From assembly GCA_041653955.1 (NCBI GenBank), contig JBAZEH010000004.1, forward strand, positions 5,191 through 69,190: a stretch of DNA of 64,000 nucleotides, in the 5' to 3' direction. The position numbers were made by a program, and so were the translations under genes. How positions within the stretch are numbered: position 1 is the first letter of the stretch; every line of letters begins with the position of its first letter. The notes under the pieces are model-generated. The model was not told the origin of the DNA, made no database searches, and saw only the letters and a program-made list of their open reading frames with translations. Origin of the DNA: Candidatus Omnitrophota bacterium. Its GTDB lineage: Bacteria; Omnitrophota; Gorgyraeia; Gygaellales; Profunditerraquicolaceae. Shown in pieces: positions 4,536 through 32,066 of this stretch.

Positions 4536-4874
4536 ATGATAGCAAAAGCGCAGGTAAAATTCATAAGGATATCACCCGTAAAGGTAAGGCAGGTAATAGA
4601 GCTGATACGCCATAAGGATGTCGCAACCGCCATAGCCCTGCTTAATAATATCAATAAGGGCCCGCGCGCCCATTTATTGAAGATATTAAAACAGGCCTCC
4701 GCTAACGCGAAGGTCAAAGGTTTTGGCCCGGAGAAGCTTTATATATCCAAGCTGATCTGCGATGAGGGCCCAAGATGGAAAAGGTTCAAGGCGGCCGCAT
4801 TCGGAAGGGCGTCTTCTATCAGGAAAAGGACATCGCATATAAATATAGAGCTTGATATTAAGCCCGGGGCTTAA
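4536..4874 (+). CDS. rplV: 50S ribosomal protein L22
   Basis: 112 aa; L22 family. Confidence 0.93.
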   Translation: MIAKAQVKFIRISPVKVRQVIELIRHKDVATAIALLNNINKGPRAHLLKILKQASANAKVKGFGPEKLYISKLICDEGPRWKRFKAAAFGRASSIRKRTSHINIELDIKPGA

Positions 4875-4990
4875 ATACCCGAACTTAATTGAGAGTTCGG
4901 TATGCCCTTTCTGGGCTAATACCCGAATTTAATTGAGAGTTCGGTATGCCCTTTCTGGGCTAATACCCGAATTTAATTGAGAGTTCGGTA
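4872..4990 (+). repeat. direct tandem repeat, 2.7 copies of a 43-46-nt unit (copy starts 4872, 4918, 4961), each with an internal hairpin (ccgaa[c/t]t...agttcgg); fills the rplV-rpsC spacer
   Basis: Units taa(a)tacccgaa[c/t]ttaattgagagttcggtatgccctttctgggc read directly; the first copy begins at the rplV stop codon. Confidence 0.9.
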
Positions 4991-5015
4991 TACGCTACTG
5001 CGTAAGGAGTAATTA

Positions 5016-5705
5016 ATGGGACAAAAGGTACATCCGTTTTTACAAAGAATAGGTTTTATCAGGACATGGCACAGCAGGTGGTTTGCGACCCCCAGGGATT
5101 ACGCCAAGTTCATCAAAGAAGATTATGACATCAGGAAGTTCGTCAAGGCCAGGTTCAAGCAGGCGGCGGTCTCCAAGATAATAATAGAGAGGCTGGCTGA
5201 ACGGATAAAGATTAGAATATTCAGCGCGAGGCCCGGCATAATCATAGGCCGCCATGGTTCGGATATAGAGCGCCTGCGTGAAGACTTAAGTAACCTGATT
5301 AAAAGAGAGTTCTCCATAGATATAGAAGAGGTAAAAAACCCGGCGTTGGACGCGCAGCTGGTAGCTGAAAACGTGGCATTGCAGCTTGAAAAAAGAATAG
5401 CCTTCCGCAGGGCGATAAAGAGGGCGATAGAGCAGACGATGAATTCCGGCGCCGAAGGGATAAAGGTGGTTTGTTCCGGAAGGCTCGGAGGCGCGGAGAT
5501 GTCGCGCACGGAAACATACAAGCAGGGTAAGATACCGCTTGCTACCTTACGCGCGGATATAGATTACGGTTTCGCGGAGAGCCTTACCACATACGGCTTG
5601 ATCGGGATCAAATCCTGGATATATAAAGGCGAAATACTCGTAAAGAAATCCGTTGAAGACAAAGTAAAAGAAGATATTGAAGCCGGGACGCAAAATCCGG
5701 CTTAA
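5016..5705 (+). CDS. rpsC: 30S ribosomal protein S3
   Basis: 229 aa; MGQKVHPFLQRIG... KH domain; RBS aaggag. Confidence 0.96.
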   Translation: MGQKVHPFLQRIGFIRTWHSRWFATPRDYAKFIKEDYDIRKFVKARFKQAAVSKIIIERLAERIKIRIFSARPGIIIGRHGSDIERLREDLSNLIKREFSIDIEEVKNPALDAQLVAENVALQLEKRIAFRRAIKRAIEQTMNSGAEGIKVVCSGRLGGAEMSRTETYKQGKIPLATLRADIDYGFAESLTTYGLIGIKSWIYKGEILVKKSVEDKVKEDIEAGTQNPA

Positions 5706-7012: not shown

Positions 7013-7324
7013 ATGCACAAGATAAAAAAAGGCGATACAGTAGAGGTAATAAAAGGCAAGGATAGAGGCAAAAAGGGCAAGGTCCTTAGGGTCCTGGCCG
7101 CTGATAGCCGCGCCATAGTTGAAGGTATTAATATGGTCAAGAAGCATATGCGGCGCAGGCGCGAGGATGAAAAGGGCGGTATCGTGCCCATTGAAATGCC
7201 GATCAATATGGCTAATCTTATGCTTTTCTGCAAAAGCTGTAACCGCGCAAAAAGGTCAGGATTTACGCTCTTGAAGGATGGCAGCAAGGCCAGGATATGC
7301 AGAACATGCAAAGAGGTGATATAA
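7013..7324 (+). CDS. rplX: 50S ribosomal protein L24
   Basis: 103 aa; KOW motif [22 protein letters not shown]. Confidence 0.93.
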
Positions 7325-7326
7325 CT

Positions 7327-7881
7327 ATGGTACCGCGTTTGTTGGAAAAATACAGGAATGAGATCATACCGGGAATGATGGAGGCTTTTTCCATCAAGAA
7401 CAAGATGGCTGTCCCGCATCTGGATAAGATAGTCATAAATATGGGTATAGGTGAAGCGTTGCAGGATATCAAGATCCTGGATAAGGCGATGGAAGAGCTT
7501 GCGACGATCACCGGACAAAGGCCCATAGTAAGGCGGGCAAAAAAGGCCATAGCAAACTTTAAGATCAGGAAAGGGCAGGCAATAGGCTGCAAAGTAACAT
7601 TAAGGCGCAAGATAATGTATGAATTTATGGATAGGCTTATAAGCATAGCCTTGCCGCGTATACGCGATTTCAGGGGCGTATCCGCCGATTCATTTGACCA
7701 GGCCGGCAATTACAGCCTGGGGCTTACCGAGCAAGGCATATTCCCGGAGATAGATTATGACAAATTGAGCCGGACGCAAGGTATGGATATAACCTTCGTG
7801 ATAAAAAATTCTAAAAGTAAAGAACAGTCAAAAGAGCTTTTAAGGCTGTTCGGGATGCCTTTCAGCACAGGAGAGGATTAA
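7327..7881 (+). CDS. rplE: 50S ribosomal protein L5 (start taken at ATG 7327, [13 protein letters not shown]; the ORF track's upstream 7297 is unlikely)
   Basis: L5 N-terminus conserved from 7327; that start sits 3 nt after the rplX stop. Confidence 0.93.
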
Positions 7882-29223: not shown

Positions 29224-29733
29224 TTGATGCTCGCGATATTTTTGATCATAGCAGGAATACTATTAAGAGTTGCGCCGCATTCCCCTAATTTTACTCCCGT
29301 CGCTGCAATAGCGCTTTTTGGCGGCTGCTACCTTAGAAAAAAATACGCCCTTATCGTGCCTCTGGCGTTAATGATCGTCAGCGACCTGGCGATAGGCCTG
29401 CATGACGTATTTATCTTTACCTGGGGCGGTTTTCTCCTGGTCAGCATGATCGGCCTTTGGTTAAAAAACCATAAAGGCGTATCCACAACTGTATCCGCAT
29501 CATTAGTTTCTTCCGTCATATTTTATATAGTATCTAATTTCGGAGTATGGCTCATGGGTTATTATCCGCGTAACCCCGCGGGGCTCATCAGCTGTTATGC
29601 AATGGCCCTGCCGTTTTTACGCGCCTTTACATTTTCAACATTGTTTTACACAGCGGTATTTTTCGGCATATACGAATTGACCGCTTATTTTGTCAAAGAT
29701 ACAAAGTTATCCAAAGTTCTTTTAACGAATTAA
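29224..29733 (+). CDS. small five-TM membrane protein of unknown function (possibly an ECF-S/DUF6580-like substrate-binding component) inside the B12 locus
   Basis: 169 aa, highly hydrophobic; own promoter; location between cobO and the riboswitch/btuB. Confidence 0.4.
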   Translation: MMLAIFLIIAGILLRVAPHSPNFTPVAAIALFGGCYLRKKYALIVPLALMIVSDLAIGLHDVFIFTWGGFLLVSMIGLWLKNHKGVSTTVSASLVSSVIFYIVSNFGVWLMGYYPRNPAGLISCYAMALPFLRAFTFSTLFYTAVFFGIYELTAYFVKDTKLSKVLLTN

Positions 29734-29742
29734 CAGTTATAT

Positions 29743-29885
29743 AGGATAGGGAAGGCCGTAAAAGCGGCCGCAGTCCCGCTGCTGTATAAGGGTACGAAAG
29801 CCCCAAGGGCCACTGGCAAAGATGCTGGGAAGGTCGGGCGAGTAGGATGATCCTTGAGCCAGAAGACCTGCCTATATAGAGGTAC
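29743..29885 (+). promoter_or_regulatory. cobalamin (AdoCbl) riboswitch aptamer
   Basis: GGGAAGGCCGTAAAAGCGGCCGCAGTCCCGCTGCTGT core, B12 box GCCACTG at 29809-29815, 3' GAGCCAGAAGACCTGCC, upstream of a TonB-dependent receptor gene. Confidence 0.85.
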
Positions 29886-29923
29886 GTGCCTCGCGGACAA
29901 GGGCGAAGATGAAATCAGGGTGC

Positions 29924-29970
29924 AGCCCCGAAAAAACAAAAATTATTTTTGTTTTTTTCGGGGTTTTTTA
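29924..29970 (+). terminator. intrinsic terminator serving as the riboswitch expression platform
   Basis: ccccgaaaaaacaaaa...ttttgtttttttcgggg stem followed by TTTTTT, 24 nt before the btuB-like ATG. Confidence 0.8.
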
Positions 29971-29993
29971 TTGTCCGGGAAAGGAAAGAAGCA

Positions 29994-32066
29994 ATGCGCG
30001 GCAAAGTAGCAGGAGGTATCTGTATCACAGTATTGCTGGTATCAAGCTTATGGGCAGCAGAGGAAACGCCGGTAGCAGCGTTGGATAAAATAGTAGTTAC
30101 TCCGTATCGTTATGCGGAATCATTAGGAAAAACAGTATCAAGTATTACCGTAATAACTTCGGATGAAATAAAGAATTCTAATGCTGAAAAAGTTATCGAT
30201 ATCCTTAGGCCAGTTCCTGGATTGGTAGTAAGAGATTGGTATGGTAATGGCACAAAAGCATCTGTTGATATGGCGGGGTTTGGCGAACAAGGGGGCTTAA
30301 ATGTCTTAGTCTTGATAGACGGGAGGCGCGCGAATGACGTTGATTTAAGCGGAGTCGACTGGAACCAAATCCCATTAGAACAGGTAGAACGGATTGAAAT
30401 CATACGTGGCGGCTCTGCAGCAGTATTATATGGGGACAACGCTTCGTCAGGAGTAATTAATATAATAACTAAAAAAGGTTCGGGAAAACCTACAGTCAAT
30501 ATCAAGACTCAATACGGCAGCTATGATACGCATAAAGAGAGCCTTTCCTTGGGCGGAGAGATTAATGATAAATTCTCGTATATGTTTAATGCTGGGCAGG
30601 GAGCAACCCATGGTTACCGCGATAACAGCTATGAGAAAACTACTGACTTTTCATCAAAACTTGAGCATAAGTTTACCGACGCTTTATCTGTACATTTCAA
30701 TTCTGGTTTTCATACCTCATCCTATGGTATGCCTGCTTCCTTATGGCAGGAGTATATAGACGCGCATAATAGGAGATACTCGAAACATGCCGATGATCAT
30801 GCTAACAACAAAGACTATTATTTTATCGTAGGAGGTAAGGCTGATTTTTCATCTTTGGGCGGGATAGATATCGATTTTAGCTACCGTGAAAAGACTACTA
30901 ATTCGTTTTTTCTGACCTCTGGCCTGAATACACAGAAAAACAGGATAAGAACCTTTGGCGTAACCCCAAAATATACATTGGGTAATAGCATCTTAGGCCG
31001 TGATAACAAGCTAATAGCAGGCATTGATTATTATCAGGCTAATTATCGTTCGGATAGGTTCAGTCTTACAAAAGATGATGATCCCAAAAGTTATAGTCGC
31101 GTCAATAAGACTTCTGTAGGCACTTATCTGCAAGACGAGTTTTCTATTTTTGACAAGCTGACTCTGACAGGCGGTTATCGGAGGGAAGCAGTACGCTACG
31201 CTTTAGGCTATCACGATTTTAGCTTTTATAACCCCGATATCGACACAAGCGTCAAGCCCAAGAAAGAGATATTCAATACAGGGCTCGTGTATAATTACGC
31301 AAAGGGATCCAGCGCATTTTTTAATGCCGGAAAGAGTTTCCGTTTTCCTGAAGTCGATGAGTTTACATACAATGATGCTTCGTGGCAGCAGAGACTAAAT
31401 ACTGACCTTAAGCCACAGACTTCTATGAACTACCAGATAGGGGCAAGGCATAAGTTTTCAGACATCTTGAAGTGCGACTTATCTATATATAGGATGTATG
31501 TAAAGGACGAGATCTATTATGATCCTAAGTCTTTCACGGATTTTTGGGGTTCATGGATGGGTAAGAACACAAATTATGACAAAACTATTCATGAAGGCGT
31601 CGAGGCTTCTTTTAATGCGAAGATTAGTGAAAAAATAGATCTTATGGGTAATTACGCGTTGACCAAGGCGTATTTTGACGGAGGCCAATATGATAATAAC
31701 GATATACCTATGGTTCCTAGGCATAAGGGGAGCGTAGGGATGACATTCTCGCTATCTAAGGATATTTCTCTTAATGTAATAGGAAACTATGTAGGCAAAA
31801 GGTATTTCCTGAATGATCAGGCCAATGATTATTCTCGTCTTAATGGCTATATGACGGCCGATACTAACCTTATCTGGCGCTATAAAGACCTGGTAATAGC
31901 TTTTGGAATAAACAATATCTTTGATAGGAAATATTCTGAATATGCAGGAGTAATTATTGATAATACCTGGGAGCCTTGTAGCGGCTTAACGTGGCCTGCG
32001 GGCACAAAGTTTTATTATCCTTCAGCAGGCAGGAATTTCTCAATCAGAATGGATTATAAATTCTAA
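29994..32066 (+). CDS. TonB-dependent outer-membrane receptor, BtuB-like (start at MRGKVAGG with signal peptide)
   Basis: Plug domain plus 22-strand barrel; ends in a C-terminal aromatic residue (F); sits downstream of the B12 riboswitch. Confidence 0.88.
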   Translation: MRGKVAGGICITVLLVSSLWAAEETPVAALDKIVVTPYRYAESLGKTVSSITVITSDEIKNSNAEKVIDILRPVPGLVVRDWYGNGTKASVDMAGFGEQGGLNVLVLIDGRRANDVDLSGVDWNQIPLEQVERIEIIRGGSAAVLYGDNASSGVINIITKKGSGKPTVNIKTQYGSYDTHKESLSLGGEINDKFSYMFNAGQGATHGYRDNSYEKTTDFSSKLEHKFTDALSVHFNSGFHTSSYGMPASLWQEYIDAHNRRYSKHADDHANNKDYYFIVGGKADFSSLGGIDIDFSYREKTTNSFFLTSGLNTQKNRIRTFGVTPKYTLGNSILGRDNKLIAGIDYYQANYRSDRFSLTKDDDPKSYSRVNKTSVGTYLQDEFSIFDKLTLTGGYRREAVRYALGYHDFSFYNPDIDTSVKPKKEIFNTGLVYNYAKGSSAFFNAGKSFRFPEVDEFTYNDASWQQRLNTDLKPQTSMNYQIGARHKFSDILKCDLSIYRMYVKDEIYYDPKSFTDFWGSWMGKNTNYDKTIHEGVEASFNAKISEKIDLMGNYALTKAYFDGGQYDNNDIPMVPRHKGSVGMTFSLSKDISLNVIGNYVGKRYFLNDQANDYSRLNGYMTADTNLIWRYKDLVIAFGINNIFDRKYSEYAGVIIDNTWEPCSGLTWPAGTKFYYPSAGRNFSIRMDYKF

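Follow-up and report, generated by a model that had tools for sequence, protein, structure and literature searches.

A stretch of 64,000 nt from a Candidatus Omnitrophota bacterium (contig JBAZEH010000004.1 of assembly GCA_041653955.1), analysed as a whole and here called the window, carries a tandem array between rplV and rpsC, the genes for ribosomal proteins L22 and S3. The array consists of three direct, head-to-tail units of 44 nt at positions 4875-5005, between the rplV stop codon and the Shine-Dalgarno sequence (SD) of rpsC. Each unit combines two hairpins, both kept by covariation, and belongs to a family that has members at other sites and is polymorphic in presence and copy number among relatives. 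We consider it probable that the array is a local three-copy expansion of a 44-nt non-coding two-hairpin element, from a mobile palindromic family that moves between intercistronic sites of Omnitrophota. Such a family of small palindromic two-hairpin repeats is apparently undescribed in Omnitrophota, and a literature search found no description of repeats of this kind in the phylum.

The array between rplV and rpsC

A first-pass annotation of the window had proposed three copies of a ~44-nt repeat between rplV and rpsC that differ by a single C/T, and both points were confirmed. Tandem Repeats Finder reports an array at 4874-4991 with a period of 44, 2.7 copies, 98% matches and a score of 229 (all other arrays in the window score ≤63), and a core pattern search finds the 29-nt hairpin core ATACCCGAAYTTAATTGAGAGTTCGGTAT exactly three times in the window (4875, 4919 and 4963) and in 0 of 100 shuffles. 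The pattern GCCCTTTCTGGGCTAATACC is present twice in the window. The sole difference among the copies is a C at 4884 versus a T at 4928 and 4972, and with the T a C-G pair becomes a U.G wobble. The features of the junction are the following.

4536..4874, forward strand: rplV (ribosomal protein L22), 112 aa, C-terminus ..ELDIKPGA* (ORF list)
4863..4874, forward strand: CCC GGG GCT TAA, what remains (5' arm and loop) of A0, an ancestral first unit
4872-4874, forward strand: rplV stop codon TAA
4875..4918, forward strand: unit 1, with hairpin A at 4875-4903, hairpin B at 4904-4916 and the linker TA
4919..4962, forward strand: unit 2, same as unit 1 except for T at 4928 (G.U wobble in the stem)
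4963..5005, forward strand: unit 3, with hairpin A at 4963-4991 (equal to that of unit 2) and variant mini-hairpin B' at 4992-5003
5004..5009, forward strand: rpsC SD AAGGAG, 6 nt 5' of the ATG (sequence and junction comparison)
5016..5705, forward strand: rpsC (ribosomal protein S3), 229 aa, ATG at 5016 (ORF list)

The L22 and S3 proteins of the window are each 100% identical to a protein from a Candidatus Omnitrophota metagenome-assembled genome, named by NCBI 50S ribosomal protein L22 and 30S ribosomal protein S3, respectively. The spacer between their genes is 141 nt long, by far the largest gap in the window's string of ribosomal-protein genes, where the remaining gaps are ≤30 nt.

The 44-nt unit is made of hairpin A, mini-hairpin B and a TA linker. 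Hairpin A comprises 29 nt with a 10-bp stem, one bulged C and an 8-nt loop; in unit 1 it reads ATACCCGAACT / TAATTGAG / AGTTCGGTAT, with C4878 bulged and TAATTGAG as the loop. Hairpin B is a GC-rich stem of 4 bp, GCCC-TTTCT-GGGC. The 7-bp stem given in the first-pass annotation is present but incomplete, since three more pairs beyond the bulged C bring it to 10 bp, and a second mini-hairpin accompanies it. Nor is the third copy truncated, as had been thought: it has a full hairpin A followed by the variant mini-hairpin ACGC-TACT-GCGT (B', 4992-5003), which abuts the SD AAGGAG.

Folding of the 181-nt junction gave -60.7 kcal/mol versus -44.2 ± 4.0 kcal/mol for shuffled sequences (z = -4.1). Unit 1 has a fold energy of -18.3 kcal/mol, and the stem-loops of the array have -14 to -18 kcal/mol each. 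The SD region of rpsC reads AAGGAGTA(A/G)TTAATG, as in relatives without the element. The hairpins precede GCCC or AAGGAG and lack the U-tract of an intrinsic terminator or attenuator, and no promoter-like or terminator-like site was found on the forward strand of the array, nor any terminator-like one between 4300 and 5500. Searches against Rfam 15 gave no gathering-score match for the unit in the window or in ten related loci, and at E ≤ 10 the region 4800-5060 returned only a noise match to IRES_FGF1 (13 bits). Three further candidates were rejected: a CRISPR array, as the units abut directly with no spacers between them; an integron attC site, whose core-site consensus GTTRRRY / RYYYAAC does not fit the arms on inspection; and a CsrA sponge, as the loops in the window, judged by inspection, contain no GGA.

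Stop codons occur in loop A (TAA and TGA) and at the unit border (TAA), covering two of the three frames. Since the period is 44 nt, the read-through frame shifts by one per unit and a stop should come within two units. A five-codon ORF, ATG CCC TTT CTG GGC TAA (MPFLG), preceded by GAGAG, is present at 4901-4918 and 4945-4962 on the forward strand, and in a related locus, L083 (described below), an ORF of nine codons starts at the homologous ATG, and its TAA overlaps the ATG of rpsC (TAATG). A small peptide gene was rejected as the conserved feature of the unit, the ATG being missing in unit 3 and in the related loci L086, L088 and L091.

The copy number of three is a count from one short-read metagenome assembly, and a stretch of 73 nt is the same in units 2 and 3, as might be seen if the array, or the count of three, were an assembly artefact of the repeat. 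Such an artefact is very unlikely, however: independent JGI, NCBI and ENA assemblies carry one- and two-unit versions at the same site, a typical read pair is longer than the entire array (131 nt), and the one-base difference between units 1 and 2 anchors at least two copies.

Filled and empty sites in Omnitrophota

The comparison is based on 80 Omnitrophota loci fetched around rpsC and on further contigs of relatives fetched through S3 and L22 homologues (L numbers below). The L22-S3 junction had been described as normally almost gapless, which is true of the typical case (median spacer of 7.5 nt over 78 Omnitrophota loci, with 0-15 nt in most), but in 14 of the 78 loci the spacer is at least 40 nt. 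An apparent 123-nt L22-S3 spacer in L029 (2878-3000) is the 3' coding part of rplV beyond an in-frame TAG, that is, a premature stop, a sequencing error or a pseudogene and not an insert.

The empty sites of L005, L006, L082, L084 and L004 read GATATAAAGGAGTAGTTAATG. In these rplV ends in ..DIKE*, the rpsC SD lies within the final two rplV codons and the distance from stop to start is 3 nt. An insert at the same site, consisting of a scar or of one or two units, is found in eight other assemblies. Relatives and the window thus carry 0 to 3 copies at this junction. The filled sites are listed by spacer length.

L090, spacer 11 nt: scar only, ATACCCGGCGCT TAA, then AGGAG
L089, spacer 38 nt: one unit
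L083, spacer 44 nt: one unit, ACCCGGCGC-TTAGTTGAATT-GCGCCGGT AT GCCCTTGTTGGGC A
L086, spacer 68 nt: two units
L091 (= L092), spacer 71 nt: two units
L088, spacer 72 nt: two units
L087, spacer 86 nt: two units
Window, spacer 141 nt: three units

All filled sites have the left flank GATAT(A/T)AA and the right flank (A)AGGAGTA(A/G)TT(A/G)ATG, which are the flanks of the empty site and match the empty junction GATATAAAGGAGTA(A/G)TTAATG of L005, L006, L082 and L084. As both flanks equal the empty site, the simplest reading is an insertion between AA and AGGAG. On this reading, the insertion would have rewritten the rplV C-terminus from ..KE* to ..K/T/I-PGA(K)*, keeping the rpsC SD and its spacing.

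The closest pair of filled and empty sites, L086 (two units) and L084 (none), is 96.4% identical over 3.3 kb. Its only indel is a clean 74-nt block that starts with the first base of hairpin A and finishes with the last base of hairpin B. The block is bordered by GGATATAA and AGGAGTA, and apart from an ambiguous AG neither flank is duplicated. A second pair, L091 with two units and L082 with none, has 89.9% identity. In a neighbour-joining tree of S19, L22 and the N-terminal part of S3 (293 columns, weakly resolved) carriers and non-carriers are interleaved. A single ancestral insertion with vertical descent only is unsupported in view of this interleaving and of the difference in presence at 96.4% and 89.9% identity. 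The sequence comparisons indicate that the element is gained, lost or exchanged on a short time scale.

Where one or two units are present, the rplV stop falls within the first hairpin, which has the last codons (Pro-Gly-Ala) as its 5' arm and the stop in its loop. In L083, L087 and L089, ACCCGGCGC-TTAG/TTAA.. pairs with a downstream GCGCCGG, so that the loop of the hairpin contains the stop codon of rplV. All that is left of this first unit (A0) in the window is its 5' remnant, followed by three free-standing units. The remnant CCC GGG GCT TAA, which forms the final three rplV codons and the stop, is homologous in the junction comparison to the 5' arm and loop of the unit that is intact in relatives, and the 3' arm of A0 was lost in the window genome.

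For searches at other sites, covariance model R1 was built from eight units and R2 from 18 units. Unit 1 scores 71.2 bits (E = 1.7e-14) with R1 and 64.6 bits with R2, and unit 3 scores 61 and 50.2 bits. In the fetched loci, the two models find units at the S14-S8 junction of L010, L031 and L027 (one each in the last two) and L022, and tandem units with the same 44-nt period at the L29-S17 junction of L031 (~2.5) and L027 (~1.5). L018 carries one and the same unit twice, within larger composite inserts at L23-L2 and S19-L22. The L010 unit, CACCCGGCGC-TTATCTGAATT-GCGCCGGTG TGCCCATGTGGGC TAGGGGGAG, stands free after the rpsN stop, and the S14-S8 mini-hairpin of L022, CGCTACTGCG, located before the S8 SD, is the same as the third mini-hairpin of the window. 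The hairpin B loop GCCCTTTCTGGGC is common to the window, L087, L088 and L031. In L031 the stem CCCCTTCCT occurs at both sites, and the units are 87% identical. Within one genome the A stems resemble each other, whereas those of different genomes are set apart by paired changes. Such homogeneity inside genomes, judged by sequence, is the pattern of a repeat family copied within genomes.

The family extends beyond ribosomal operons. When JGI metagenome contigs were scanned with ATACCCGAAYTT-N7-AGTTCGGTAT, the only match was at a non-ribosomal locus, L081, an Omnitrophota contig in that all source-named homologues of its HtpX (78-82% identical) are labelled Omnitrophica or Omnitrophota. Its sense unit, 83% identical to unit 1 of the window, lies in a 5' untranslated region (5'UTR) between a c-di-GMP-I riboswitch with a terminator and the next gene. 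After the hairpin come a GC mini-hairpin and AAGGGGGAG, which is the same architecture of A, B and SD as in the window. Relative to the flanking genes, L081 has one sense and three antisense units. A contig with an HtpX 90% identical to that of L081 (L093) has the same layout of riboswitch, array and gene with a different unit content, lacking the sense unit. The riboswitch of L081 is at 7072-7191 on the forward strand (RF01051, 51.7 bits) with a terminator-like hairpin, and the four-unit array is at 7225-7458.

The first-pass annotation had reserved a neutral duplication for the case of a unit that occurs nowhere else, at a junction identical in all relatives. The unit does occur elsewhere and the junction varies, so duplication in place, as a purely neutral event, does not suffice as an account. 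A purely local origin would suppose that a template switch created a quasi-palindrome across the rplV stop, which was then duplicated in place, with the other hairpins being convergent and nothing moving. It would explain why the first-unit 5' arm of the relatives is rplV coding sequence with the stop in the loop, and it agrees with the lack of a second locus in 64 kb and with the abundance of unrelated, seemingly locally generated hairpins in Omnitrophota spacers. It also gains from L095, a more distant Omnitrophota locus without the element, where rplV already carries AAACCCGGAGCGTAA at its end. There rplV closes with AAA CCC GGA GCG TAA (L095 2465-2485, KPGA*), the SD GGAG is inside the codons and the string nearly equals the 5' arm of the element in L083; this likeness may be a coincidence driven by the SD, microhomology used in integration, or a hint that the arm came from an rplV end. 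However, the flanks of the filled sites match the KE-type empty site and not the KPGA-type. In addition, the free-standing L010 unit after rpsN (S14) is 83% identical to the rplV-linked unit of L083, the same B hairpin and architecture recur at four other junctions and in a 5'UTR, and several units at unrelated loci are already present in L018, L027, L031 and L081. We find a purely local origin improbable.

Long spacers are not limited to the L22-S3 junction in Omnitrophota. They occur at S14-S8 in 21 of 69 loci, at S19-L22 in 17 of 75 and at L23-L2 in 12 of 64, and are concentrated in certain genomes. Most of them fold into long hairpins with arms of short repeats and a genome-specific sequence. 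Core operons that hold structured inserts are thus a feature of the phylum, and in the window a single junction is affected.

Maintenance of the hairpins and comparison with known repeats

Both hairpins are maintained across the family. In a MAFFT alignment of eight units 98.2% of the cells form standard pairs and 6 of the 14 pairs are changed on both sides; the covariation score was reached by 0 of 500 shuffles, and slid controls pair at 19-37%. In the alignment of 18 units 97.5% of the cells are paired and 11 of the 14 pairs show double changes, but this alignment was made through the covariance model and thus leans toward structure. Its two core helices contain five non-Watson-Crick cells, all G.U and none A.C. 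This pattern says that the hairpin matters on the element's own strand, as RNA or as folded single-stranded DNA, between which it does not separate.

These observations could also be explained by a selected cis-acting RNA module, acting as an insulator or standby platform, a processing site or a barrier to 3'-exonucleases that tunes S3 relative to L22, with tandem copies adding strength. Compensatory changes in both helices and the restriction of non-Watson-Crick cells to G.U are what such a module would produce. The units in ribosomal operons are all in the sense orientation (6-7 independent sites), nearly all arrays end exactly at the SD, the SD of rpsC in the window is predicted to be mostly unpaired (mean probability 0.68), and the B loop GCCCTTTCTGGGC is conserved across distant copies. 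The ending at the SD could reflect targeting, or survivorship in operons where other non-coding space is scarce. However, contigs 96.4% identical exist with and without the element, most Omnitrophota spacers measure 0-15 nt, three of the four L081 units are antisense to the flanking genes, and no Rfam family matches. Upkeep of hairpins is equally expected from recognition of folded single-stranded DNA or from template-switch correction of quasi-palindromes, and in 112 other Omnitrophota spacer hairpins the single mismatches are not significantly biased (22 G.T versus 14 A.C, p = 0.24). A selected RNA module appears unlikely.

A role as CsrA-type binding sites, in which a GGA in the loop and the GGA of the SD would together repress rpsC translation, was considered on the basis of the CsrA consensus. 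Loops in other genomes do read UAUCGGAA, UAUAGGAA and UAAAGGUA, some 25-30 nt from an AAGGAG. The loops in the window read UAAUUGAG with no GGA, though, and the element also occurs in antisense orientation, which makes this role extremely unlikely.

The first-pass annotation had compared the array to REP (repetitive extragenic palindromic) sequences and MITEs (miniature inverted-repeat transposable elements). In support of a mobile repeat, units occur at other junctions and in a non-ribosomal 5'UTR and differ in presence at 96.4% identity, but the defining marks of both classes are missing. The element shares with the REP/BIME/REPIN sequences of Proteobacteria, which are associated with RAYT transposases, a short (~30 nt) imperfect palindrome with an extrahelical base, within the 20-40 nt typical of REPs. 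It also shares the extragenic location, often inside operons, the clustering in arrays, the homogeneity within and divergence between genomes, and the occurrence of both orientations (L081). REPs are defined by a GTAG or CGTC tetranucleotide at the palindrome end (PMC3733652). Neither adjoins hairpin A in any of the 22 units listed, which start with A[T/C/G][A/C/G]CCC and end with GG[T/C][A/G][T/C]. In REPINs the mobile unit is formed by two REPs in inverted orientation (PMC3116915), whereas the units of the window are direct and head-to-tail, with both orientations found in L081 only. The Omnitrophota unit further differs from REPs in pairing two different hairpins (A and B), in its phylum and in its low copy density, with one locus in the 64-kb window and two sites within 6.7 kb in L018, L027 and L031, and no RAYT gene is known to go with it.

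Mycobacterial interspersed repetitive units (MIRUs) resemble the element in their 40-100-nt head-to-tail units placed between operon genes and co-oriented with them (in our case at the ribosomal-operon sites), and in their variable copy number among close relatives (0, 1, 2 and 3 at the same site in Omnitrophota). MIRUs, like the Omnitrophota element, sit beside translation start signals in a way that limits harm to expression, and their ORF overlaps the flanking stop and start codons, coupling translation to the downstream gene (-4 nt) (PMC12548453). In contrast, the Omnitrophota period of 44 is not a multiple of three, there is no conserved ORF, the hairpins are the conserved feature, and the sequence has no similarity to MIRUs. 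MITEs, with operon-borne examples such as Correia/NEMIS, ERIC and RUP, have in common with the element that they are small, lack autonomy, are transcribed together with the neighbouring genes and form hairpins in the mRNA. They are, however, 100-200 nt or longer and have terminal inverted repeats and target-site duplications, whereas the comparison of filled and empty sites shows no target duplication and the ends CACCC.. and ..GGGCAG are not inverted repeats. The element thus resembles REPs, MIRUs and MITEs in behaviour and is a member of none of them. Elements of the IS200/IS605 and RAYT type are handled as single-stranded DNA. By analogy, the bulged hairpin, the strand-specific wobbles, the precise sites and the lack of target duplication are reminiscent of such elements.

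Proposed history of the array and its possible effects

We propose that the ancestral rplV-rpsC junction, GATATAA|AGGAGTAGTTAATG, was tightly coupled, with the SD of rpsC contained in the final two codons of rplV, and that a single unit was inserted immediately 5' of this SD. After the insertion rplV would read three or four codons into the element (Pro-Gly-Ala) and end at the stop in the hairpin loop, with the original rpsC SD and spacing preserved downstream. Slippage or unequal recombination could then have amplified the unit to two copies in several relatives and three in the window; such an exchange is suggested by hairpin A, which is identical in units 2 and 3 and differs by one base in unit 1. 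The element would be mainly selfish or neutral and non-autonomous, and it would be tolerated on account of the stop codons that it supplies and of the SD, which stays exposed.

The S10-operon mRNA would then carry a row of stable stem-loops. Termination-reinitiation coupling over 3 nt may have been replaced by de novo initiation at AAGGAG. REP hairpins in mRNA stabilise upstream segments, and by analogy with the REP elements of E. coli the stem-loops could slow 3'-to-5' decay of the upstream transcript. REP-containing mRNAs are exonuclease targets (PMC12320835), and secondary structure just 3' of a stop codon has been reported to reduce coupling (PMC12548453). An effect on translational coupling or mRNA stability is put forward by analogy only, and the data do not call for a regulatory or coupling role, since the element is missing from near-identical genomes.

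Several observations weigh against an expanded mobile element. The dispersal for which the first-pass annotation had suggested a check was not seen in the 64-kb window: patterns with ≤3 mismatches, blastn-short, R1, and R2 with filters off revealed no locus beyond the array (next best E = 0.44), and the exact core is absent from 185,579 GTDB representative genomes, so that dispersal within the window genome is unproven. Terminal inverted repeats, a target duplication and GTAG/CGTC were not seen, and the argument for mobility thus comes from the distribution only. In the L086/L084 pair six mismatches cluster within 30 nt upstream of the indel, and the difference could be a homologous exchange of the junction allele, and not transposition or excision. 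The rplV end of L095, by its resemblance to the 5' arm, leaves room for a local origin of that arm, the sense-only orientation at 6-7 ribosomal-operon sites also fits a selected function at the RNA level, and the copy number depends on one short-read assembly.

An extension of the mobile-element proposal, which we hold to be possible but doubtful, is that the A+B unit is an intercistronic cassette that homes to sites just 5' of SDs and brings both loop stops and an insulating hairpin. It would move precisely and with no target duplication by a single-strand-specific enzyme and would in some lineages have been co-opted to set the expression ratio of ribosomal proteins.

If the array is an expanded mobile element, then even a gene junction that ranks among the most conserved and tightly coupled in bacteria can carry mobile DNA, provided that a stop comes with the insert and the ribosome-binding site is undamaged, and the insert would have rewritten the C-terminus of an essential ribosomal protein. 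With R1 and R2 the family is defined and can be searched for, in a phylum whose members are uncultivated and have very small cells. The family might serve as a strain marker in the manner of MIRU-VNTR (variable-number tandem repeat) typing, and its recognition would improve annotation, as gene callers otherwise misplace rplV ends and call spurious small ORFs. The sites with 0, 1, 2 and 3 units also form a natural series for studying structured spacers versus translational coupling and mRNA decay.

Other structured spacers were noted in related Omnitrophota. Hairpin spacers of 50-260 nt occur in L003, L018, L020, L022, L046, L058, L064, L070, L074 and L078, at several junctions per genome, with arms built of 6-10-nt tandem repeats such as GTTAGCTAGTTAGCC...GGCTAACTGGCTAAC in L070. 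A second, larger composite element occupies the L23-L2, S19-L22 and S17-L14 junctions of several Omnitrophota (L018 801-994 and 2265-2526; L020 1119-1271; L001 1346-1487 and 4653-4707; L074 2464-2580). It ends in a conserved hairpin, ..TTCGCGCA..TAACTTACG-loop-CGTAAGTTA.GCGCTCATTTAAT, just 5' of the start codon, has no Rfam match, and in L018 also holds an A+B unit.

The window itself contains a second structured spacer in the operon region, an inverted repeat with 22-nt arms (ACACCGGGCATTTTTAAGAAAC / GTTGTTCAAAAATGCCCGGTGT, 86% complementary) at 1780-1828 on the forward strand. It occupies a ~60-nt gap 5' of rplC (1868) and 3' of an elongation-factor-sized ORF (216-1418), and its sequence is unrelated to the 44-nt unit. 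Elsewhere in the window, a cobalamin riboswitch (Rfam RF00174, 91.3 bits) is located at 29700-29889 on the forward strand, directly 5' of a 705-aa ORF (29949-32066), with an inverted repeat of 17-18 nt at 29926-29963 between the two.

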